Assembly (NCBI GenBank): GCA_012719085.1
Contig: JAAYBA010000147.1
Coordinates: 1 to 40,915, forward strand
Source: Planctomycetota bacterium
GTDB taxonomy: Bacteria > Planctomycetota > Phycisphaerae > Sedimentisphaerales > Anaerobacaceae
DNA: 40,915 bases
Direction: 5' to 3'
This document shows positions 5,237-27,125 of the stretch, in pieces. Each line of letters begins with the position of its first letter. Position 1 is the stretch's first letter. Both the position numbers and the translations under genes were made by a program. The notes below the pieces were generated by a model, which was not told where the DNA came from, did not search any database, and saw only the letters and a list, made by a program, of their open reading frames with translations.

Positions 5237-5265
5237 ATCCTACGAGTATCGGGTCGATTTGTCAA
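5237..5265 (-). promoter_or_regulatory. sigma70 promoter for the ilv operon/leader
   Basis: TTGACA-17 nt-TAGGAT on the minus strand. Confidence 0.7.
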
Positions 5266-5425
5266 GCTCTTTTGTGAAGGCAGGAACGAATTTGGACATC
5301 TTCCCTCACGCGGTCGCAGGAGCGTGGACGATGGTAAAGGCCAAGGATATCGCGGCAGCAGTCGCCCGCCCCCACCATGACAGGAATGACTCGGGGGCTT
5401 TTGGATGGCAACCAGAGCCTTTGGC

Positions 5426-5453
5426 TTGCAGTCCTCAAGCCATATGCTATAAT
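5426..5453 (+). promoter_or_regulatory. sigma70 extended -10 promoter for the ECF sigma operon
   Basis: TTGCAG-16 nt-TATAAT including TGnTATAAT. Confidence 0.65.
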
Positions 5454-5513
5454 AGCTGCCGTGGTTCAGGTTCGTTTGTTCCCGTCACGGCCGTATGGTC
5501 CCGGAGCACGAGA

Positions 5514-6044
5514 GTGATACGATTCGGTCAAGACGACAGCAAAGCAGTTAACGCAGCCGCCACCGTGTTTCGCGAACACGGTGCGTTCATCCGGACCATT
5601 ATCCGTTTTCAGGCCGGCAGCGAGTTTCAGGAAGACGAACTGGCCCAGCAGCTCTTCTTGTCCCTGGTGAACGCCCCCATTCCCGAGGACGTCGAGAACG
5701 TCAGAAGCTACCTCTATCAGGCGATTGCCAACGACGTCATCGATTTAGGTCGGCGAAAGGCACGCCAACGGAAACATTTTCGGAAATTTGCAGAAGAATT
5801 TCGGATTTCCATCCACAAACAGGCACCGGCGGACGCCCTTATGGGCGAAGAAGAAAGTAATGCGGCGTTCGCATGCCTGACCCGACAGTTGAGCAGTAGG
5901 GAGGCGGAAGCTGTCAAGTTGAGGTATCAGGATGATCGCAGCATTCCCGAGATTGCCCGCATCATGGGTGTGGACAGGCGAACGGTGAGCCGCTATCTGA
6001 CCGCCGCATTGAAGCAGTTGAGGAGAATCCTGGCGATTGAATGA
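5514..6044 (+). CDS. ECF (sigma-70 family) RNA polymerase sigma factor
   Basis: Region 2-like DELAQQLFLSL...SYLYQAIANDVID; region 4 LSSREAEAVKLRY...SIPEIARIMGVDRRTVSRYL. GTG start at 5514 chosen from GGAG spacing and promoter position. Confidence 0.9.
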   Translation: MIRFGQDDSKAVNAAATVFREHGAFIRTIIRFQAGSEFQEDELAQQLFLSLVNAPIPEDVENVRSYLYQAIANDVIDLGRRKARQRKHFRKFAEEFRISIHKQAPADALMGEEESNAAFACLTRQLSSREAEAVKLRYQDDRSIPEIARIMGVDRRTVSRYLTAALKQLRRILAIE

Positions 6045-6047
6045 GGG

Positions 6048-7700
6048 ATGAGGATGGTTACATTCGATGGAAGCGAGTTGTGCCACGAAGCGGAGGTGTA
6101 CTATCATGATTATCTCCAGAATCCTGGCGGTCCTTCCGTTCCAGTGTCCGTAAGGCTTCACATCGGCAGTTGTGCCTGGTGCCGGCAGCGCCTCCAGACA
6201 CTTCGAGAGGCCCTCTGCGAGTTGGACGAGCCGGGCGAATCGGTGTTGCCGGAGACGGATTTGCAGCTCATTGCGGAGTTGCAGTCGCATTTCGAGCATC
6301 TCAACGAGCCGCTGGCCTGCACCCGTGTCAAACCGTTCCTTTGCCGTCTTCTGTCGCCATCCGTGAGGATCCGAATTCCCACTCCCGTGACCGTTCACGT
6401 GGATCGGTGCGCCTCGTGTTCGAACGATCTCGACTCGCTCAGGCAACTGTCGCTCGGCGCCGGGCAATTGGCTCGCCTGGGCCGCCTGTACCAGGGAGGC
6501 CTGAACGACGAACTCTGTGCCTGCCTGACAGAGTCCCAGATGGATGCCGCCGCGTCTGCGCGCTTCGAGGATATGACGTCATGCGTCCTCGGCCATTTGT
6601 GCGTCTGCTCGCGTTGCCGTCGGGAGGTATACGAACGCCGCCAGATTCGTCTGGCGCGTCTTGGGTGCGAAACCGCGCAGGCCGGACCGCTCCATTGCGA
6701 AGACATCTCCCCGGCGGAACTGTTCGATTGTGCTGTCCCCTATGGGCTACAGCCGGCGTTCTTTCAGACGGCCGCACAACGCGACCTCCGTGAACACGTT
6801 CGCTCCTGTCCCCAGTGTCTCGAAAGGATGCAGCAGATCCATCGCACCGTCTTTCAAATCGCCGAGCGTGCCGATTCCGACGTGGTCACCGTGTATACGA
6901 CAAACGGCCTGGGTGGAACGACGTTGCAGTACCCCGCGCCGAACTCACATGCAACCTACCCGATCCGTGTGCAGACCGAACGACATCGCCGGGGAATTGC
7001 CGGCCGTCTGATGCATCGGCTGGGCGGACCGACCGTCAGGCCTTTGGTCAGCGCCGCCTTTCTCGTGGCGGCGATGATTCCCCTGACGGTCCTGTTCGTT
7101 GTCAGCGTGCCCTCGGCATCGGGCCTGAGCATCCGCCAGGTCGATCAGATGCTCGGCAGGGTCAAGACGGTGCGCATCTCCGTGTTTCGCGAGGATCAGA
7201 GCGAGCCATTCCGCCGGACGTGGATTTCCCGCGACAGGGGCGTGGTTATCTCGGAGGTGGGATCGGAGAGCCGGATCTACGACTTGGCGAACCGTCGCGC
7301 GACGGTCGTCCGAGCGGGTTCCGAGGCCGTCGAGCATATCAATCTGAACCGATCTGAGACCGAAGCGGTGGAACGCTTCGTGCGTCGCATCCTCGAATCC
7401 TCGCTGCTCAATGATGCGCCGCTGGATGCGGAGCTGACGCGCCGGCCGGCGTCCTCCGGGCCGACACATGCCCGGCTCGATGTATATGAACTGACCTGGG
7501 ATCGTTCCTCCGACCTCCGGGCCCCGCTGCCGGGAAAGCTGAGGATCTACGTCGATCCCATCACGAGACTGCCCCAGCGACATGAGTTGTTCTCATGGGT
7601 CCCCGCCATGAACGACTGGCACGTGCAAACGAGCCTGTATGAGTACCCGCCAGACGACGAGATCGAGGCGTATCGGCGGACACGGCTGGGACTGAAGTAG
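6048..7700 (+). CDS. Putative membrane-anchored anti-sigma factor with four ZAS zinc-finger motifs and an extracytoplasmic domain
   Basis: HIGSCAWC, HVDRCASC, HLCVCSRC, HVRSCPQC; one TM helix (LVSAAFLVAAMIPLTVLFVV); starts 3 nt after the sigma stop. Confidence 0.8.
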   Translation: MRMVTFDGSELCHEAEVYYHDYLQNPGGPSVPVSVRLHIGSCAWCRQRLQTLREALCELDEPGESVLPETDLQLIAELQSHFEHLNEPLACTRVKPFLCRLLSPSVRIRIPTPVTVHVDRCASCSNDLDSLRQLSLGAGQLARLGRLYQGGLNDELCACLTESQMDAAASARFEDMTSCVLGHLCVCSRCRREVYERRQIRLARLGCETAQAGPLHCEDISPAELFDCAVPYGLQPAFFQTAAQRDLREHVRSCPQCLERMQQIHRTVFQIAERADSDVVTVYTTNGLGGTTLQYPAPNSHATYPIRVQTERHRRGIAGRLMHRLGGPTVRPLVSAAFLVAAMIPLTVLFVVSVPSASGLSIRQVDQMLGRVKTVRISVFREDQSEPFRRTWISRDRGVVISEVGSESRIYDLANRRATVVRAGSEAVEHINLNRSETEAVERFVRRILESSLLNDAPLDAELTRRPASSGPTHARLDVYELTWDRSSDLRAPLPGKLRIYVDPITRLPQRHELFSWVPAMNDWHVQTSLYEYPPDDEIEAYRRTRLGLK

Positions 7701-7707
7701 GCCGATT

Positions 7708-8574
7708 CTATCGCGGCTCCCACAGAGGCGTCCGATTGTGGTATATCGGCTCGTCTGATTCGCTCACCATTTCCACGCATAGGGCTTCCGCCTTCATGCG
7801 ATCGACGTGCCCATCGGCGAATCCGACGTTGACGGTCTTGTTCGGGTGCCGGCCACCGATGGCGTCATCGATCTGTCCGGACAGCAGTTCCTTCTCTTTG
7901 TTGATCGCAAGGCCGGGGATGTACGCCGTCCCCAGCGCCAAGGGGCCCAAGTAGCGATGGGGAGGCTGGAGCATCGCATCCCACCAGCAGACGAGGGCAT
8001 AGCCGCTGTCCACGAGCAGGACCGTCGCTCCCGGATGACGGATCGTGCTCGTGGACAACGGGGGCCCCGGAAACTCCCGCTTGTAGGGACTCCTGTCGGC
8101 GGCGCTTCGACACAAGGACCGGTTGACGCCGTAGTTGCCGTAGAGGACGCTCCGCGACAACCCCGGTGTTTCAATACGCCGTGAAGGACACTCCAGTATC
8201 TTCCTGTCGCGCGAGGACGGGTGGCGAACGGCGCCGATGAAGTCCGGCCAGTACCAACCCGGCAGATCGTAACTCGCATCGCCGAGGTAGCCGCTCGGCG
8301 GACTCGAACGCATCGCCCATATACCATAGGGCAACGTCTGGTGCTCCGCTTCATATTGATGGAACTGGATCGCCAGGTCACGAATATGGGCCTGGCAGAC
8401 CATCGCTCTGGCCTGTTCGCGCGCGCTGTGCAGCGCCGGGAGCAGCATCGCCGACAGCAATGTGATAACAGCAATCACAACGATCAGCTCGACGAGCGTG
8501 AAACCTCTGAGTCTCATGGTCCGCATTGTAGGCTCAGCCGCCTCTGCGTCAATCGGTGTTCGCGGTGGTGCCAT
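7708..8574 (-). CDS. DUF1559 prepilin-type N-terminal cleavage/methylation protein with H-X9-DG C-terminus
   Basis: RGFTLVELIVVIAVITLLSAMLLPALHSAREQARAMVCQAH; RHPNKTVNVGFADGHV. True start may be ATG 8526 or 8517. Confidence 0.9.
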   Translation of the reverse strand: MAPPRTPIDAEAAEPTMRTMRLRGFTLVELIVVIAVITLLSAMLLPALHSAREQARAMVCQAHIRDLAIQFHQYEAEHQTLPYGIWAMRSSPPSGYLGDASYDLPGWYWPDFIGAVRHPSSRDRKILECPSRRIETPGLSRSVLYGNYGVNRSLCRSAADRSPYKREFPGPPLSTSTIRHPGATVLLVDSGYALVCWWDAMLQPPHRYLGPLALGTAYIPGLAINKEKELLSGQIDDAIGGRHPNKTVNVGFADGHVDRMKAEALCVEMVSESDEPIYHNRTPLWEPR

Positions 8575-8635
8575 CGGGCGTCATCCGTCCCCAGCCCCAC
8601 GAATACACCAAACACTGGCTTCCGGCTCATCCCGC

Positions 8636-10438
8636 TTAACGGCATGCACTCATGGCGTACCAGTCCCATACGCCGGTCACCCGACATCGTATGGCAAGCG
8701 GGTCCCAGTAGCAGTCCGATCCGGCCATTCGGGCGTACAGATCGGTCACACAGGTCCCGTCGGGAGCGGGCTCGCAACCCCAGCGTTCGAAATACCATTG
8801 GAAGTAGCCGAAGCAGCCCCACCCGTCGGGGGTATCGGTACAGAAGATGATCCATTCATCCTGCAACAACAGCGTGCAGCTCCAGCCGTCGCCGCCGGCG
8901 ATACGACGAAGAGCGCTCTCGGGCACGTCCGTGAACGGCCCTTCGATAGGCTCACTGGACAGCAGCAAAGCGACCCCCTCCGACCAGTCCATCGCCATGA
9001 AGCCTTTGTCCTTGCGACAGTAGAATCTGTCGTTGGCCAGGTCAACGATCCAGGCATAGCGATCGTCGACGCGATCGAGCACCACGAAATGCTCCTGTCC
9101 CGGCAGATGCAGAATCGCCTGGCAACCGGACAAGGCCTCCAGGGTAGCGAGATTCGTCTGCACAACACGGCAATGCAGACCGAGACTCTGGGCGCCTCGT
9201 TTCAGGTCGTGCATCGTCGTTCGTCCATCCGCCCCAATGACCTGTGTCAACCTCGCCGCGGGTGCGACCGTGCCCAACTGCGTTGCGGCGTACTGCAGCG
9301 AAGCGGTGGCGCAGTTCCAGGACCGCTTGCCCTGCTCGGCCACATAGGCCAGCCGCTCGGCCAGCAGCAGATCCATATCGACCGCATTGGAATGATGATA
9401 CACCAGGGCCCTGGCGGACATCGCCGAGTAATACTCAATTGACGTATTGGCGCCGAATGCCACGCTAAACCTCTCGGCGCCCGGAACGCCTGTGTCAACC
9501 GCACTGTAATCCCATCGATCCGAGCGCAGCAACCGATTCGTGAAGGCATCGTACTGTTCGATAAGGACCGTGGTGGGCACCCAGAGGCCCCCTACACGGC
9601 GGTATCCCGAGCAATAGGTGGACATCACCGTGTTGTTGCCCCCGGGCAACGTATAAGCGGCTGCCGCCAGATCCTTCGCAGGGTCCAGCAAGAACGTCAT
9701 CTCCGAACTGCCGGCAGGCTCGACAGTCAGCTCGATCTGAGTGGTCCCGTCGCGAGCAATCTCGGTGGCCGAGACCTTCGCGGCGACCAGGTTCGTATAC
9801 GACAGCAGGCCCCGGCCCCAGGGAATGACGCCCGCTGTCAACGGCCCGCTTACCGCCCGGGGCAACCGGTCGCTCGTATCCACGATGGCACCGCCGGCCG
9901 AAACCGAATAGATCGTGTACTTCTGCCCGTCCCATGCGAAGACTCGGCGATCGTTCCAAGTCCTGCTGAAGAAGTTGACCATGCAGTTGCCCACCAGATC
10001 GGCCGACGGCGTAACGGAGTCGCTTCGCGACGAGATCGCGACCTCCCAGTAAAACCTTGTGCCATCGTATCTTAGCACAACCGACGAGGTCATGCTCGAC
10101 TCGTTGGCCAGCTCGTAACGCACGTTGAACGGGATCGCGTCCAGGTACATCTTCTGCAGTTCAGCCGTCCGCTCTGACTTGTCGGTTTTGCTCTGATACT
10201 CGCGAATCTCCTGCTCGATCCTCTCGGAGATCGCCGAACCATCGGTAATCCTGGCGGCTCTGTACTGCTGGTGTTTGGCTTCGATAGTGCCGGCTGGAAT
10301 CCAGGTCTCTCGGCCCGCGCTCGTGAGCTTCTCGATGATCTCGAGCACCTCGGCCCTGTCCATGGCTCTCTGCGCGCTGGCCGGAGCGACAATGCACACG
10401 GCCAGCAACGCGACCGCTGCTGCTTTGCTTACCTTCAT
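8636..10438 (-). CDS. Secreted protein: large N-terminal domain + peptidase C39-like domain + double-glycine motif + Cys-rich C-terminal peptide
   Basis: AGGAGG SD; signal peptide MKVSKAAAVALLAVCIVAPASA; WNCATASL (C376), EHFVVLD (H450), WIVDLA (D466), WSEGVALL; ESALRRIAGG then 84 aa with 8 Cys. Confidence 0.85.
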   Translation of the reverse strand: MKVSKAAAVALLAVCIVAPASAQRAMDRAEVLEIIEKLTSAGRETWIPAGTIEAKHQQYRAARITDGSAISERIEQEIREYQSKTDKSERTAELQKMYLDAIPFNVRYELANESSMTSSVVLRYDGTRFYWEVAISSRSDSVTPSADLVGNCMVNFFSRTWNDRRVFAWDGQKYTIYSVSAGGAIVDTSDRLPRAVSGPLTAGVIPWGRGLLSYTNLVAAKVSATEIARDGTTQIELTVEPAGSSEMTFLLDPAKDLAAAAYTLPGGNNTVMSTYCSGYRRVGGLWVPTTVLIEQYDAFTNRLLRSDRWDYSAVDTGVPGAERFSVAFGANTSIEYYSAMSARALVYHHSNAVDMDLLLAERLAYVAEQGKRSWNCATASLQYAATQLGTVAPAARLTQVIGADGRTTMHDLKRGAQSLGLHCRVVQTNLATLEALSGCQAILHLPGQEHFVVLDRVDDRYAWIVDLANDRFYCRKDKGFMAMDWSEGVALLLSSEPIEGPFTDVPESALRRIAGGDGWSCTLLLQDEWIIFCTDTPDGWGCFGYFQWYFERWGCEPAPDGTCVTDLYARMAGSDCYWDPLAIRCRVTGVWDWYAMSACR

Positions 10439-10638
10439 AGCTTACCTCCTTGTCGAAGAGTGTTTTGGCCGCCAGGCACATGCGGCTCGGCGAAAGCGGG
10501 CCCGGCGACGATGTCAACCAAAGACCGCCCCTTTTTAGGCGCACCTGACCCCATAGATGTGGATGGAATTCCTGAAAATGCAAAAAAAAGACGTGTCGGC
10601 ACGCATCTTCCACAGATCGGGTGAGGCGGAAGCACGGA

Positions 10639-11517
10639 CTACGGCATGACGTCCGTCCGTTCGAGCCAGTAATCGCTGAAGAGCACCAAGTCGCAAACGT
10701 CGATTCGATCGTCGCCATTCAGATCGACTGCCATCGTCTCGTTCGGATCTGAAACGAACGTCTGTCGCCAGCGGCCGGCCAACACGGCGAAATCGGCGAA
10801 GTTGACAAGGGTGTCGGCGTTGCAGTCACGAGACACAACATGTTGAAAAGAAAGGACTTGAATTAGAACCGCCTCGAATGGCGGGGGATCGCCAGGATCA
10901 TCAGGATTCGGCTCGGTCACGACATCGGTGCTCGCCGCATAGCCGTACAATCCGACGCTGCATTCTCCAACGGCCTTGGCCTGGTAATCCAGAATGAACC
11001 ACGGGCCGGGAACCGCATCCCAGGACGAAAGCAGGTGAAATGACAATCCGCTCGCATCCGCCGCGGCCGTGACCAGGGCGTTTGTGCCGGCCGCCGGAAG
11101 GCACGATCCTTCGTAGCTGAAGAAGGGGTAAGCCGGATTGTCGCCCCTCGCCGAGACGATCCCCGTGTCCAGGTTCGCCCGCGAAAGCCACAGCGCACCA
11201 CCCCAACCTGATGCCATATCGGACGTTACGGCAATGACGAGCCGGGTCCCCACCATGACGTCGCGATATATGTTTGGCACGTTGGGATCGGCCAGGGCCA
11301 ACGGTGTCGCCTCATCGGCCAGGAAGACGTGGGCGGAGATCCCCGCAGCGACGGTCGAGCCAAGGAGCCCCACCAGGATCAGCGAAAAAGAGGCAATCGC
11401 GCGCAGACTGATCCGCCCCGCATGGCTCCCGCTCCGCGCACACAGGGCACGACCAGGCGTCGGGCGGCCAACGCGCTGCCCCCATCGCCCCAAAACGTCC
11501 CTTTCTGCAACTCGCAT
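10639..11517 (-). CDS. Secreted protein with C-terminal dockerin/EF-hand-like repeat pair
   Basis: DCNADTLVNFADFAVLAGRW and DLNGDDRIDVCDLVLFSDYWL; hydrophobic segment SFSLILVGLLGSTVAA. Start uncertain. Confidence 0.75.
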   Translation of the reverse strand: MRVAERDVLGRWGQRVGRPTPGRALCARSGSHAGRISLRAIASFSLILVGLLGSTVAAGISAHVFLADEATPLALADPNVPNIYRDVMVGTRLVIAVTSDMASGWGGALWLSRANLDTGIVSARGDNPAYPFFSYEGSCLPAAGTNALVTAAADASGLSFHLLSSWDAVPGPWFILDYQAKAVGECSVGLYGYAASTDVVTEPNPDDPGDPPPFEAVLIQVLSFQHVVSRDCNADTLVNFADFAVLAGRWRQTFVSDPNETMAVDLNGDDRIDVCDLVLFSDYWLERTDVMP

Positions 11518-11523
11518 CCCCAC

Positions 11524-11552
11524 ATTATAGGAATTTGCTGTTTCCAGGTCAA
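11524..11552 (-). promoter_or_regulatory. sigma70 promoter for the dockerin-like gene (possibly the whole minus-strand cluster)
   Basis: TTGACC-17 nt-TATAAT. Confidence 0.75.
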
Positions 11553-11910
11553 TCCGCTTGCTCCGCCTGACCTGGCAAGACGCAGCGAGCCCGAGGCCGG
11601 CGTATCCCGAGTCGACCCCGTGGGCGCAGAAACGGTGGCGCGCACCGGCAGAAAGATCCTCGTCACATGACCACGTTGTGGGTGTCGAATCGCTATCGAC
11701 GCAACAGGGATTGTCTTCGCATGACGAAGTGCGGGCAGGTGTCATCGGCCCATGTGAACAGGCCCTCCATCCTGCCCTGGTCGGGGTTAGTGCCGGTCGC
11801 CCAGGTGCAGTGGCCCCAGGTGGGCTTTTCGATACACGTTCGGGCCGGCGAGAGGCCAATGTGGATGAGAAAACCTGACGGTGGATTGATTTTCTTGCCG
11901 GTGTGCGCGC

Positions 11911-21923: not shown

Positions 21924-23234
21924 TCAGAAGCTGTAGCGAACGGCAAGATAGGCGTTGGTGTTGTTGTGAAACTGGTTGAAGAAGGTGTGGGTCTCGTCGC
22001 CGAAAAACACATTCCCGCCGATCTCGACGGCCAGATGGTCGCTGGCCTTGTAGTTGGCGATCGGCCGCATATAGACGTCCTCATCGGACGGCGAGTAATA
22101 CGTGAACAGCGATAGACTCAGGTTCTGGTTCATCAGCAGCTTGGTCAGACGCAACGTTGTGAGGTGGCGAAACTCATCGCGTTTGGGCATACCGGCGGGC
22201 TGGTTGTTCTCGTAGTCGTCGTAATCGAGCATCTGCTCGACGTAGTACTGAACGCCCGCGGTGAAATCCCTCGCGATTTCCTGCGTGTAGCCCACAAGGT
22301 ACCGCATCTCGGAATTGTTGATGAGGAAATCATCGCCGTCGCGGTCGTCGACCGAATCATAGTAGCCGATCTCGGCATTGCCGATGCCCTTGCCAACCGT
22401 ACCGCGAATGCTGGCGCCGTAGACGTACAGATCGGGAAAGACCGCGGCGGTCATTGCCTCATTGAACCCGCCCGGGCTCTTCCAGTAGCCCCAATACCCG
22501 TAGAGGGCCAGTTCGTAGTTACGGATGTTGCGGTACAGACGCAGAGCCAGTTCGTCCTCTTCGAGGAACTCCCGGCGGCGTTCGACGCTCATGGTGTTGT
22601 CCTCGCCGGCCCGGTCACCCAGCACGGGATTCCAGTAAGACAAACGCTCCCCGCTGATGAAGCGGTCGGAGTCGAACTCCGGCGTATAGGCAACGTCCAG
22701 GTTGGCCCAGTCCATGAAGAGACTGACCTTCACCGCATCTGACGGGGCCTTGAGGTACTCCGTGTCGCGACCGATGAAGAACGACTGCCAATCCTTGGGG
22801 AACAGATCGTTGATGAAGATCAAGTCGCCCGTCCCCCAGGTCAGAACCTGGCGACCCAGCTTGACGTCCATCGAGTCCGTCGGACGCATGAAGAGATTCG
22901 CCTCGCGCAGGTCGAAAACACCTTTCTCTTCAACGCCGTCGCCGTAGACGTCGCCCTTGACCTTGATATCGCCCCAGTCGCGCATGTGGAACAGGTCGAA
23001 CTGGTAGCGCGCCTCCATGATCGACATGTCCTTCTCATCCGGATCGTTCTGGAGCCGGTAGCCCGCCCGTGCCTCGTAGAACCCGTGGTACTCGGTGTCA
23101 AACCTCTCGAAGAACTCCCGAACCGGGTCCGATTTCACCTGTTCGTCCTGTGCGACAACGATCGCCGAGCAGGTCATCGCCAGCAGAACCACCGTCCTGA
23201 TGTGTATCGGGACGATACGCCGGAACACAATCAT
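21924..23234 (-). CDS. Putative outer-membrane beta-barrel protein
   Basis: Signal peptide; DLREANL, KLGRQVLTWGTGD; C-terminal AYLAVRYSF; start overlaps upstream stop (ATGA). Confidence 0.7.
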   Translation of the reverse strand: MIVFRRIVPIHIRTVVLLAMTCSAIVVAQDEQVKSDPVREFFERFDTEYHGFYEARAGYRLQNDPDEKDMSIMEARYQFDLFHMRDWGDIKVKGDVYGDGVEEKGVFDLREANLFMRPTDSMDVKLGRQVLTWGTGDLIFINDLFPKDWQSFFIGRDTEYLKAPSDAVKVSLFMDWANLDVAYTPEFDSDRFISGERLSYWNPVLGDRAGEDNTMSVERRREFLEEDELALRLYRNIRNYELALYGYWGYWKSPGGFNEAMTAAVFPDLYVYGASIRGTVGKGIGNAEIGYYDSVDDRDGDDFLINNSEMRYLVGYTQEIARDFTAGVQYYVEQMLDYDDYENNQPAGMPKRDEFRHLTTLRLTKLLMNQNLSLSLFTYYSPSDEDVYMRPIANYKASDHLAVEIGGNVFFGDETHTFFNQFHNNTNAYLAVRYSF

Positions 23235-24046
23235 CTCATGGCCTCCCTGGGGGGTCTGCGAAGGTACCGTTCCTCAAAGATATCCCCGATACCGACGTTG
23301 TACTGGACGTTCGTAAATTCCATCTCCGTTTGCCCACCCGTCTTGAGGTCCTTGACGACCGACCTGGTCACCGTGGGAAGGTCCTGGATCACCTTGACGT
23401 CCTTCGACTCGATGACGCGATAGAGCTGGCCCTGCTTGTCGTAGAAATCCATCTTCGTCGGGACGTAGGTCTTGCGATCGATCGCCACGGTGTAGTAACT
23501 GAATTCGACCTCTTCGGGTTTCTTCGGAACGTTCTTGACGATGAACATGGCATCGGTCGTCTCAATCAGTTCGTGCGTGTCCTGGTCGAGGCCGCGACCG
23601 GAAACGTCTTCATAGACGAAGTCGGAACCGACGAAGCTGGTCCGCTTGTCGCTGGCCGCCACCCGCTTGACCAGATCGAGTGCCGGCAGATACAGCCAGC
23701 GGTCGTCGTCCTTGCCCTCGCCCACATGCTTCTTGACCATGTACACCATCCGCCGCACATCGGACGGACGCTGGAAGTACACGAAGTAATTCTGGTCGCC
23801 GCCGTCCACAACGTCCTTGCGCAGGATGATGAACTCCCGCTCGCGGGTCTGACCTGCCTTGCTGGTGATGGTCATCTTGACCGTGGCCTTGCCGTCGTCG
23901 CCCTGGTAGTAAGCAACGATGTTGGCTCTGGTCACGATCGTCTGAACGTCGGGTGCGTCGCCCTCGGCGGCCCTGGCGACACCAGCAACGGTCAGACTGA
24001 AAACGGCACATACCAGCAGTACGGCCGAGCTTTCTTTTCGCAGCAT
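23231..24046 (-). CDS. Outer-membrane lipoprotein-sorting (LolA-like) periplasmic protein
   Basis: GGAGG SD; signal peptide; FQRPSDVR, DDDRWLYLPALDLVKRVAASDKRTSFVGSDFVYED. Confidence 0.85.
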   Translation of the reverse strand: MLRKESSAVLLVCAVFSLTVAGVARAAEGDAPDVQTIVTRANIVAYYQGDDGKATVKMTITSKAGQTREREFIILRKDVVDGGDQNYFVYFQRPSDVRRMVYMVKKHVGEGKDDDRWLYLPALDLVKRVAASDKRTSFVGSDFVYEDVSGRGLDQDTHELIETTDAMFIVKNVPKKPEEVEFSYYTVAIDRKTYVPTKMDFYDKQGQLYRVIESKDVKVIQDLPTVTRSVVKDLKTGGQTEMEFTNVQYNVGIGDIFEERYLRRPPREAMR

Positions 24047-24069
24047 GGTACACCTCCGTCTTGTCAATA

Positions 24070-24258
24070 TCAGCCTTTGACACCCAGTTTCCGCAGGAAC
24101 GTCATCATCGGGCACCAGTTGGTGAACGCGGACTGAAACAGGTTCAAACCGACGAAACCCGTGAACAACAACCAATAAGACGAATGGTAATGCGCCAGCA
24201 GGGCGCTGACAATCACGAAGAAGCCGGCAATGCCTCGGAGCATCGTGTCCACCGTCAT
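24070..24258 (-). CDS. DUF2892 (YgaP-like) small membrane protein
   Basis: LRGIAG...WLLFTGFVGLNLFQSAFTNWCPM..LRKLGV. Confidence 0.85.
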   Translation of the reverse strand: MTVDTMLRGIAGFFVIVSALLAHYHSSYWLLFTGFVGLNLFQSAFTNWCPMMTFLRKLGVKG

Positions 24259-27125
24259 AGATCACCTCTCTTCTCTTCGGCCTGACCTGGCTGGTCCTGC
24301 CGTGCCTGGGCCACGCGACAGGCCTGCCGGCGCGACATGATCCCGCAGGTCAGCGCCATCAAGGGGATGACAACAAGCCCGAATACGGCCAGGTAGCCCA
24401 GGCTCATATTCCAGTTCTGGTGCAGGTTCAACGCCACCAACACAACGGCCGCCACAGAGACGATCATGCAGAAGCCGCAATTGCAGCCGGCCGACTGCGG
24501 CATCCTGGCAGGTCGCAGCAGCCGATTCTCCGCCACGGTCAGGATGGCTGGCAACACCAGCAGGGTCACGGCGCCCGACAGGGCCATGATCGCACAGAGG
24601 AAGATACCGACCGTCTTGTAGGGAACCAGCGGCGCCGCCAGCAGCGGCAGGAAACCGATGGCAATCACCAGTACATTGCGGCTGATCGCCCGGGCCGGCT
24701 CGCCAAACATCTCGGCGACACTGGCCTTCCATGAACCGGTCAGGGCGTACGTCGACCGCGCCCGTTCAAGGAAGTGGATCGCGAAATCGACCGCCATGCC
24801 CAGTGTCAGCGCGCTGAGCACCGCGACCGGCATATCGTAGTCTTTGCCGACCAGGCCGATAATCCCGTAGATGACCGCGATGGTGATCGACAGCGGGATC
24901 ATGCAGATCAAACCCCACAGGGGCGAACGGAACAGGATCGCCATCATGATGAACACGATGATGAAGCTGCCCAGCAGCGATTGGAGCATGCCCCAGACCA
25001 TCTTGTTCTGCCAGATGATGTTGATATAGGTCAGTCCGGCCCACTGGTGTTCGAACGGCATCGGCGCCGTCGTCTCGGCGAAAAACTCCTCCACCGCCTG
25101 GACGACCTGCTCCATGTCCTTGTTGTCACCGCTCTTGAGCTGAAGCCAGAGGTTGGCCCTGTCATGGTCGTTCGTGACGAAATGCCACAGATCGTCGGGC
25201 GTATGGCTGCTCTGGAACTGGATGAGGCATTCGGCTACCGCGGCGCCGGAGTCGGGAATCCTGTAGTTCTCGGGCTTGCCGTCGATCAGCTCCTGGTGCA
25301 CCTTCTTGACGATGCCCGCGATCGAGTTGGTCTTGCCGACCAGCCCCGTTTCCTCCAGGTATTCCTCCAGTTGCGCGATGTAGCGAAGCGCCTCGGGCTG
25401 CTTGAAGACCTTAAGACGCTCCTTTTCGAGATCGAAGAAGTCGCTCAACTCGAACCAGACGTCGGCGGCCTCCTCGGACGCCGAGGCCTCCTTTTCCTGA
25501 GCGTAGCTGTTCAGTTTGTCGAGCAGAGCGACCTTGGTCAGGCCCGTCGACGCTTCGGCAAGGAGGGCCTTCTCCGCCTCGGCGACCACCCTCGTCGCGG
25601 CGGGCACATCGGGCGACAGGTCTTCGGCCTTTTTCACAAGCCGATCGCGCAGACCGTGAAGGTATTCGGTGCTCACGTTGGGATCGCTCGCATCGGAGAG
25701 GACCAGATAGGCCATGTAGGTCCCGGAGAAGTGCCGGTTCAACTCGACGTCGGCCACACGAATCGGATGGCTTCGGGCGAACCACTTGATCGGGTTGTCG
25801 TTGATTTGGATCCGGGCCACGCCATAGACCGCCACCGCCGCGACGATGACGATCGCCACCAGAATGGGCTTCGCGGCGGTGTAGGTGAGCCGGCCTGTGG
25901 CATGGAGCACATGGGTCAGCCAGGTCTGCTTCTCCTCGTGTACGGCGGCGGCGCCGAAGTTCTCCAGGGAGCGATCTTTGAGGAACATGACATAAGCCGG
26001 AACGAACGTCACCGTACAGATCCAGGCCACCATGATGCCCGAGGCGACGAAAATCCCGAAGACCTGGACCGGCGGGATTGGCGTCAGCGCCAGTGACGCA
26101 AAGCCGGCCGCCGAGGTCAACGAGGTGTACAGCATCGGCATGAACAGATTGTCCATCACCTCGAGCATCGTCTGACGCCGGCCCTTGCCCTTGGTGTACC
26201 GGTCGAAAAACTCCGAGAGAATGTGCACCGAATCGACGACCGCGATCGGCATCAGGAAGATCGGAATCATCGAACTCATGATGTGGACCGGATAGCCCAG
26301 ACCGATCAATGCCCCCATCGTCGTGATGACCGCGACCATCGCCACGATCATCGGCGAGATCACCAGCACCAGCTTGCGGAAGAACGCGAGCATCAGGAGG
26401 AAGATCACCAGCATCGCCAGCGGCGCCGAGATCGCCATCTGCACGAACATCTCGTATCCGAACGTGTCTTCCGCCACGGGTAGACCCGTGATGTGATACT
26501 CCTCGTCGCCTTGGAACTCGGCGATCTTCGCATTCAGCGCACGATACACTCTGTGGCTCAGGTCCTTATGGGTCAAGGGCAGGTACAGACTGATCGCCTT
26601 GCCGTCGTCGGAGACGACGGTGCCCTTGAGCAGGGGATTGGACATGGCCTTGTCGCGAATCGCCAGCGCCTCGGCGTCGGTCTCCGGAGGCCGGGGCATC
26701 AGCCACTCGAACGTCACGACGCCGGGACCGCCCTGGCCGATGTGGTCGACCGTGGACGGCGCGAGCAGATCGACTTCGATCACGCCGATCTGGCGGTTCG
26801 GGTCTTCCTTGTCGGGCCAGCGCAGGGTTTTGGCATACTCGGTCAGATCGTAGATGTTGCGCAATGAGGCGGGATCGAACACGCCGTCAGGATGGGCGTC
26901 GTTGACGACACCGACGACGACCATATCGGACAGGACGAACTGCTCTTTGGTCCGGTCGTGGAAAAGCCGCACCGGCTCGTCTGCCGCGAGCATGTTCTCC
27001 GGATCGGTATCCACCTGAATGCGCGGGATCAGCGCGCCCAAGGCCAGAGTGAAGACAACCATCACCACCGTGACCAGTTTGTAGTGGCTCAGTGAGTAAT
27101 CTGTGATCTTGTGTCTCATTTCCAT
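24255..27125 (-). CDS. MMPL/RND-family transporter
   Basis: VDTDPENML, TGLPVAEDTFG, AVVDSVHIL, YTSLTSAAGF, GMAVDFAIHF; two TM bundles. Confidence 0.9.
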   Translation of the reverse strand: MEMRHKITDYSLSHYKLVTVVMVVFTLALGALIPRIQVDTDPENMLAADEPVRLFHDRTKEQFVLSDMVVVGVVNDAHPDGVFDPASLRNIYDLTEYAKTLRWPDKEDPNRQIGVIEVDLLAPSTVDHIGQGGPGVVTFEWLMPRPPETDAEALAIRDKAMSNPLLKGTVVSDDGKAISLYLPLTHKDLSHRVYRALNAKIAEFQGDEEYHITGLPVAEDTFGYEMFVQMAISAPLAMLVIFLLMLAFFRKLVLVISPMIVAMVAVITTMGALIGLGYPVHIMSSMIPIFLMPIAVVDSVHILSEFFDRYTKGKGRRQTMLEVMDNLFMPMLYTSLTSAAGFASLALTPIPPVQVFGIFVASGIMVAWICTVTFVPAYVMFLKDRSLENFGAAAVHEEKQTWLTHVLHATGRLTYTAAKPILVAIVIVAAVAVYGVARIQINDNPIKWFARSHPIRVADVELNRHFSGTYMAYLVLSDASDPNVSTEYLHGLRDRLVKKAEDLSPDVPAATRVVAEAEKALLAEASTGLTKVALLDKLNSYAQEKEASASEEAADVWFELSDFFDLEKERLKVFKQPEALRYIAQLEEYLEETGLVGKTNSIAGIVKKVHQELIDGKPENYRIPDSGAAVAECLIQFQSSHTPDDLWHFVTNDHDRANLWLQLKSGDNKDMEQVVQAVEEFFAETTAPMPFEHQWAGLTYINIIWQNKMVWGMLQSLLGSFIIVFIMMAILFRSPLWGLICMIPLSITIAVIYGIIGLVGKDYDMPVAVLSALTLGMAVDFAIHFLERARSTYALTGSWKASVAEMFGEPARAISRNVLVIAIGFLPLLAAPLVPYKTVGIFLCAIMALSGAVTLLVLPAILTVAENRLLRPARMPQSAGCNCGFCMIVSVAAVVLVALNLHQNWNMSLGYLAVFGLVVIPLMALTCGIMSRRQACRVAQARQDQPGQAEEKRGDL

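Follow-up and report, generated by a model that had tools for sequence, protein, structure and literature searches.

In the literature, C39-family peptidases belong to the cytoplasmic portion of ABC exporters and cleave precursors made as separate chains. A gene in the window analysed here, that is, in the whole 40,915-nucleotide stretch of DNA from a planctomycete, raises the question whether such an enzyme may also be arranged to cut its own chain, and to do so after this chain has left the cytoplasm. The 600-aa product combines a Sec-type signal, a LolA/LolB-fold domain, a C39 domain, a leader and an 84-aa tail with eight cysteines in one chain, and this is a real, conserved architecture assembled from known parts. 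The initial annotation of the locus had already placed enzyme, leader and cargo together with an export signal in a single polypeptide, which is supported here, the signal by its pattern; all residues and coordinates given in it (C376, H450, D466, G515-G516, the 84-aa tail and the hydrophobic positions -4/-7/-12/-15) proved correct. Interpretation of the open reading frame as an artefact was rejected, the frame being intact in many genomes. The gene and the parts of its product are located as follows.

8636..10438, minus strand: gene for the 600-aa fusion protein (P0001), an open reading frame
10373..10438, minus strand: Sec-type signal peptide, aa 1-22, with the cut after ASA and before Q (sequence pattern; pLDDT <50 for aa 1-21)
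9404..10366, minus strand: N-terminal LolA/LolB-like domain, ~aa 25-345 (Foldseek, VIA)
8948..9382, minus strand: C39 peptidase domain, aa 353-497 (Pfam, VIA)
9311..9313, minus strand: catalytic Cys376, kept in 267/267 and aligned to ComA C17 / PCAT1 C21
9089..9091, minus strand: catalytic His450, kept in 266/267
9041..9043, minus strand: catalytic Asp466, kept in 264/267
8891..8935, minus strand: internal double-glycine leader, aa 502-516, predicted cut between G516 and D517 (motif, conservation)
8639..8890, minus strand: 84-aa all-beta eight-cysteine core, aa 517-600 (conservation, model)

Passage through the Sec pathway is indicated by a basic start, a hydrophobic stretch and the subsequent ASA before Q, as judged by pattern alone; the commonest site in the family is AFA before DR, and a lipobox-like pattern occurs in 3/118. 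After the signal, the rest of the 600-aa protein has no hydrophobic stretch. The model of the fusion protein built from 118 homologs reached pLDDT 89.9 and pTM 0.87. PF03412 is the only Pfam domain in the chain, and the N-domain is recognised by its fold, the nearest being LolA3 (9tp6, E 2e-7, Foldseek) and LolB (9tpm; VIA Z 12.6, rmsd 5.9, 216 residues aligned), with RseB among the weaker matches (E 1.3e-3, Foldseek). Queried with this domain, ESM Atlas returned planctomycete clusters. A protein search with the fusion gave 388 relatives at E<=0.001 among 7997 scored candidates (the best 120 of the 388 being 45-100% identical), and 748 cluster representatives passed the same E<=0.001 in a profile search, 150 of them listed. 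A single-sequence search of PDB gave no real match. The closest relatives are assigned to Sedimentisphaerales or Phycisphaerae; the family is present in 145/251 genomes sampled within the order, and the core profile matched 7/401 genomes across the phylum, all 7 belonging to the same order and all 7 matches lying within frames of 563-629 aa.

The assignment of the enzymatic part as C39-like, made initially from the sequence, is borne out by PF03412 matching aa 371-496 (E 1.1e-11, 45.2 bits against a cut-off of 22) and by a fold closest to ComA (3k8u; VIA Z 14.3, rmsd 2.5, 131 aligned), LahT (6mpz; VIA Z 14.0) and PCAT1. Conservation is counted here over an alignment of 267 distinct sequences of at least 480 aa, from which fragments, gappy rows and the tandem-C39 protein P0193 were left out. 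The oxyanion Gln expected six residues ahead of the catalytic Cys, reported as highly conserved in C39 (PMC6959990), is found in only 6/267 family members; Gln at -2 from the Cys occurs in 199/267, Trp taking this place in the 600-aa protein. This loss makes C39 activity less likely but possible, since the Q26A substitution in CvaB is reported to have cost little secretion and charged substitutions most of it (PMC3335142). Among groove residues, L/M409 and G488 fit PCAT1 A55 and G135, the latter being the partner of the large -4 residue, and where PCAT1 has the "hydrophobic knot" partner I59, the family mostly has Lys (K413 here). PF03412 gave one match in the 94.85% complete genome, namely the fusion protein, and thus no PCAT that could serve the leader was found by this search.

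Several variants and other C39-like proteins were met in passing. P0193 (804 aa) has tandem C39 domains, the first with the triad and without a leader behind it, the second lacking Cys and His, with a leader-like stretch and a core behind it; in P0145, the stretch with the catalytic Asp is apparently lost, leader and core being kept. Many other C39-like proteins of the order (loci L089-L108) have N-terminal hydrophobic stretches and lack a double-glycine leader, several of them carrying long beta-rich tails, and one genome, G601, gave 12 C39 matches.

The leader sits at aa 502-516 of 600, unlike the N-terminal leaders of small precursors, and presents F-15, V-12, L-7, I-4, G-2 and G-1, with G515-G516 at 8891-8896. 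For ComA the motif is given as Phe-15, Ile-12, Leu-7 and Ile-4 with GG, GA or GS as the site (PMC10885120), and the family consensus equals both the motif and the GG/GA/GS rule: position -15 is F/L/I/V/M/Y in 212/267 sequences, -12 is I/L/V/M in 264/267, -7 is L/M in 218/267 and -4 is hydrophobic in 251/267. Lack of conservation of the double glycine, set beforehand as a refuting condition, was not observed, Gly standing at -2 in 256/267 and G/A/S at -1 in 249/267 (another residue in 10/267, a gap in 8/267); the P2-P1 pair is GG in 128, GA in 84 and GS in 28 among 259 recognisable leaders of 270. A strict leader pattern, sought in the 32 residues preceding the first core Cys, is present in 145/229 homologs, compared with a mean of 1.4 and a maximum of 7 in 1000 shuffles, and with 10/2893 in other windows of the same proteins. 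In 274 aligned rows the stretch from -12 to -2 is free of indels and the linkers flanking the motif vary (10-16 and 2-9 residues), a contrast which the gap placement of the aligner may sharpen. Behind other planctomycete C39 domains the motif was absent from all 28 examined (0/15 and 0/13; in one batch of these loci, 7/20 had no domain above threshold and were left out), and thus no planctomycete locus combining the fusion's arrangement with a different cargo turned up among them. NCBIfam leader models gave no match to the 32-aa leader stretch, short queries often being dropped, and ESM Atlas gave no usable match for leader-core. Judged by sequence conservation, the leader is a real conserved feature, beyond chance.

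Residues 501-510 are modelled with pLDDT 92, a helix spans 507-510 (-10 to -7) and bridges are formed at 503-504 and 514-515; for CtA, a substrate of PCAT1, a helix at -10 to -4 is described in the groove (PMC6959990). From this we infer that the leader docks in its own C39 groove, the covariation between leader and groove being weak (R424-D504, z 3.5, rank 167). We consider the predicted self-cleavage of the fusion protein likely.

The presumed cargo is a 9.80-kDa domain with pI ~4.1 and 8 Cys, each kept in 261-267 of 267. Modelled alone it gave an elongated, all-beta structure with pLDDT 94.9 and is predicted to fold independently of the protease, a tail folding as an integral part of the enzyme having been named beforehand as a refuting condition. 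No match to its fold was found by Foldseek at E<=0.001 (PDB and viral models), and the best Z among 48,161 chains was 3.7, by which a new fold is not proven; among 73 cores searched with Pfam, no single family was shared by more than 3. Free-standing core or precursor genes were not recognised in word-based searches with few candidates (9 and 15), and six short core matches correspond to the end of the fusion, apparently as fragments.

A variable tail had been expected at the outset; what was found is one conserved acidic scaffold. The core family is the same in 76/76 complete loci out of 80 loci chosen by the C39-leader part alone, and net charge of the core has a median of -4, being positive in 13/264. 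Over 16 non-overlapping close pairs, dN is 0.195 in the core vs 0.08 in the body, dS 0.73 vs 0.47-0.54 and dN/dS of the core 0.27, positive selection not being seen; on these sequence measures the core is a single acidic scaffold under purifying selection. Bodies 87% alike accompany cores 50% alike in the pair L021/L038 (81% and 56% in L040/L066), and such combinations of close bodies with distant cores hint at allele exchange at the 3' end. It might be supposed that the core, once released, acts as an antimicrobial or toxin, i.e., a Sec-exported bacteriocin supplied with its own maturation enzyme, as the leader is of the bacteriocin type, the core is small and disulfide-rich, its dN exceeds that of the body and its alleles jump as in L021/L038. 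However, mature peptides of class II bacteriocins are cationic, opposite to the charge observed here, one core family occupies all complete loci, dN/dS is 0.27, and the 69-234 nt between the fusion stop codon and the motif of the downstream prepilin-type gene (41 loci) leave scant space for an immunity gene, so that a bacteriocin appears highly unlikely.

The relation between core and body is addressed by one coupled pair of residues.

9434..9436, minus strand: Glu335, covarying with core Arg552 (8783-8785) (coupling)

The E335-R552 coupling (z 7.2, rank 6 among all pairs; E/R in 225/267) is predicted from covariation to be a contact between N-domain and core, and together with pTM 0.87 suggests that the core is packed on the body. 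Given this covariation with the N-domain, the predicted cut may leave the core bound, and release of a free peptide, with which cleavage had been equated initially, need not follow.

The neighbourhood of the gene contains candidates for what the core, if it is a ligand, might act upon.

10445..10451, minus strand: ribosome-binding site AAGGAGG, the commonest upstream 7-mer (36/80 loci)
10537..10564, minus strand: two-part promoter-like motif ATCCACAT-N15-CGCC, conserved upstream of the fusion gene
10639..11859, minus strand: secreted protein with a dockerin-type C-terminus (PF00404), longest ORF, upstream of the fusion
7708..8574, minus strand: prepilin-type DUF1559 / H-X9-DG gene, longest ORF, directly downstream of the fusion
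6048..7700, plus strand: predicted membrane anti-sigma factor (profile matches weak, below cut-offs; sequence features)
5259..6044, plus strand: ECF sigma factor (TIGR02937, 75 bits vs 42.9), longest ORF, true start probably further in
5811..5837, plus strand: motif repeated within the ECF gene, the anti-sigma start following ~210-240 nt later

The order dockerin-type, fusion and prepilin-type gene, facing anti-sigma and ECF sigma, recurs in most loci: the dockerin-type gene precedes the fusion in 52/72, the prepilin gene is next after it in 62/68 with enough flank, the anti-sigma is present in 53/54 with enough flank, and ECF sigma and anti-sigma occur together in 50/54. Four HxxxCxxC motifs in the cytoplasmic part, one membrane helix at ~aa 334-354 and an outer domain of ~195 aa are seen in the anti-sigma; the profile match of this outer domain to the N-domain of the fusion was not significant, with weak LolA_like matches in 5/44.

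The motif ATCAACAT-N15-CGCC stands upstream of the fusion in 52/80 loci (shuffle mean 1.1, maximum 6), the spacer being 15 in 52 upstream regions and any other spacer occurring at most 4 times, and from this pattern we infer an ECF-sigma promoter. Within the ECF gene, ahead of the anti-sigma, 26 matches were found (L001-L080), and synonymous codons favour the motif there (ATC for 30/32 Ile, GAC for 12/12 Asp and GCC/GCT for 40/40 GCN Ala codons, related loci not being independent). ECF sigma factors usually drive their own anti-sigma plus targets, and given this layout and the shared motif the fusion is probably an ECF target gene. Control by the neighbouring ECF sigma thus seems probable, and in that case the core would be an output of the ECF pathway. 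Genome-wide, 64 motif matches at spacer 15 vs 26-58 at other spacers make a regulon inseparable from chance. RNA contigs from four metatranscriptome studies, which carry neither level nor strand information, cover most of 5470-11500 and partly the flanks, giving a hint of cassette expression.

Further observations concern the surroundings. A gene for an HTH/WYL-type regulator (named by eye) lies beside the cassette in 21/81 loci, among them L017, L019, L020 and L024, and four carry the motif of the fusion gene upstream. A near-perfect sigma-70 promoter (11/12) at 11524-11552 on the minus strand ends 7 nt ahead of ATG 11517, which is in frame with the dockerin-type gene and from which this gene possibly yields a leaderless transcript. 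Before the ECF gene, TGnTATAAT is found at ~5445-5490 on the plus strand, and the start of RNA contigs from four studies at 5470-5488, near this element, is a weak hint of a transcript start. A cluster of DUF1302, LolA-like and MMPL transporter genes adjoining a sulfatase gene occupies 21924-27125 on the minus strand.

The presence of a membrane anti-sigma in 53/54 loci allows the leader to be seen in another role, as a built-in plug that fills the groove, whether cut or uncut, and is displaced by a signal, whereupon the C39 domain cleaves, e.g., the outer domain of the anti-sigma and turns the ECF sigma on, the core being a retained sensor. The lack of the oxyanion Gln, the covariation of the core with the N-domain, the RseB match of the latter (E 1.3e-3) and the example of FapD, a periplasmic C39 peptidase thought to cut other proteins of its own operon (PMC5557850), are all in keeping with such a role. 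Against it, a conserved leader site was found in none of four neighbour families, the anti-sigma, prepilin and dockerin-type proteins included (strict pattern 0/52, 2/66, 3/59 and 1/53 vs 62/74 for the fusion); small residues at both -2 and -1 would be needed by a substrate and not by a plug, and a tethered leader would be expected to outcompete other substrates. We regard a plug as quite unlikely.

The constant proximity of the prepilin-type gene (next in 62/68 loci) bears on a further possibility, in which the core serves structure or binding, as a tip, adhesin or fibre subunit that the protease of its own chain matures and that is passed to the adjoining prepilin-type protein, with the LolA-like domain acting as a chaperone. 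The elongated all-beta model would suit such a part, and among 12 equal-length windows only the core clearly correlates positively with prepilin distances (partial 0.23 vs -0.15 to 0.04). Yet the core-prepilin correlation (partial r 0.27) has p 0.049, uncorrected for two tests and with kinship inflating it, folds of pilins or adhesins do not rise above noise (best Z 3.7), and a 500-aa enzyme for each 84-aa subunit would be costly for a bulk fibre; a subunit of this kind is therefore very unlikely. Core distances correlate with those of the anti-sigma at r 0.11 (p 0.11).

The reading that we prefer, and consider fairly likely, is that the fusion cuts itself once between G516 and D517 after export and that the core serves as a sigma-controlled output or signal. 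The neighbouring ECF sigma would probably switch the gene on, and the chain, judging from its signal pattern, would be exported by Sec with removal of aa 1-22. The core would fold with four disulfides, as the eight conserved Cys and the model imply, and the leader, which a short linker tethers to the final strand of the C39 domain, would lay its positions -12/-7/-4 into the groove and its G-G into the narrow cleft, by analogy with the LahA and CtA leaders. Cleavage by C376 would then give a 54.4-kDa LolA-like/C39 piece and the 9.8-kDa core. With the leader remaining tethered in the groove, each chain would work about once, and the core would probably be held on the N-domain by contacts such as E335-R552 until handed on. 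If it is a ligand, its partner is most likely a protein of the same cassette, i.e., the outer domain of the anti-sigma or the prepilin-type protein; the ligand role itself is speculative and stands somewhat on the unlikely side. A still more elaborate version, which we hold to be doubtful, is a one-gene peptide-signal device, in which one chain takes care of export, folding, cutting and retention of its disulfide-rich ligand, the ligand acts on the anti-sigma of the cassette, and the freed ECF sigma raises the gene again. Should it be true, a quorum-sensing-like loop with allele-specific signals would operate without ABC exporter or histidine kinase, and C39 plus leader, like Hint domains, would make up a general module for self-cutting.

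If the leader-carrying C39 indeed cuts itself, the C39/leader pair also works as a module after Sec export, and the unit might find use as a self-removing tag for disulfide-rich cargo. For the ECF pathway found in 145/251 sampled genomes of the order, the locus offers a candidate ligand, the core without a fold match, together with a promoter motif.

Among known systems, the C39 domains of PCAT/AMS exporters (ComA 3k8u, LahT 6mpz, PCAT1 6v9z) share with the fusion the fold and the Cys-His-Asp triad, and their substrates share the leader spacing -15/-12/-7/-4 and the G-G/A/S site. Unlike them, the fusion has no membrane or ATPase domain and no oxyanion Gln, bears a Sec-type signal and a LolA-like domain, and keeps its leader internally, behind the protease in the same chain, with no separate precursor. 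The periplasmic carriers LolA, LolB and RseB resemble it in the fold of aa 25-345, unlike them in being fused to a protease and in showing 6-13% identity at rmsd 5-6 A. The polymorphic and MARTX toxins likewise place an autoprocessing peptidase just before a C-terminal domain thought to be released in cis; the folds reported for this role are HINT, caspase-like/C80, ZU5, PrsW and papain-like, and the C39 domain of polymorphic toxins is counted in the same sources among the toxin domains (Tox-PL-C39) and not among processing domains cutting at double glycines (PMC3482391, PMC8277102). Unlike these toxins, the fusion has a C-terminal domain of one family (76/76) and no immunity gene was seen.

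The initial annotation named no earlier description of such an architecture, and a full-text literature search, mostly of main texts outside subscription, likewise found none for a C39 domain fused to its own double-glycine leader; action of C39 after Sec export, on the other hand, is known. FapD of the Pseudomonas Fap amyloid system has a Sec signal and is active in the periplasm, with no ABC transporter; it stands alone, its target is called unclear and the Fap proteins are said to lack canonical C39 sites (PMC5557850). The fusion, unlike FapD, has a canonical leader and cargo in the same chain, scores 20.2 bits against NF058616 (FapD; cut-off 330) and has neighbours different from the fap operon. 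Closest in idea are giant Omnitrophota proteins with C39 near the signal peptide, for which cutting of the own chain was suggested by the authors, the main text naming no cut site and containing "double-glycine" 0 times (10.1101/2023.11.21.568195; related reading on C39 self-cutting in 10.64898/2026.06.07.730766 and PMC10318531). Unlike these multidomain giants, the protein described here has 600 aa, a small core and an ECF cassette, and with a cut site predictable to the single residue it provides a concrete test case for the proposed self-processing of C39-containing chains.
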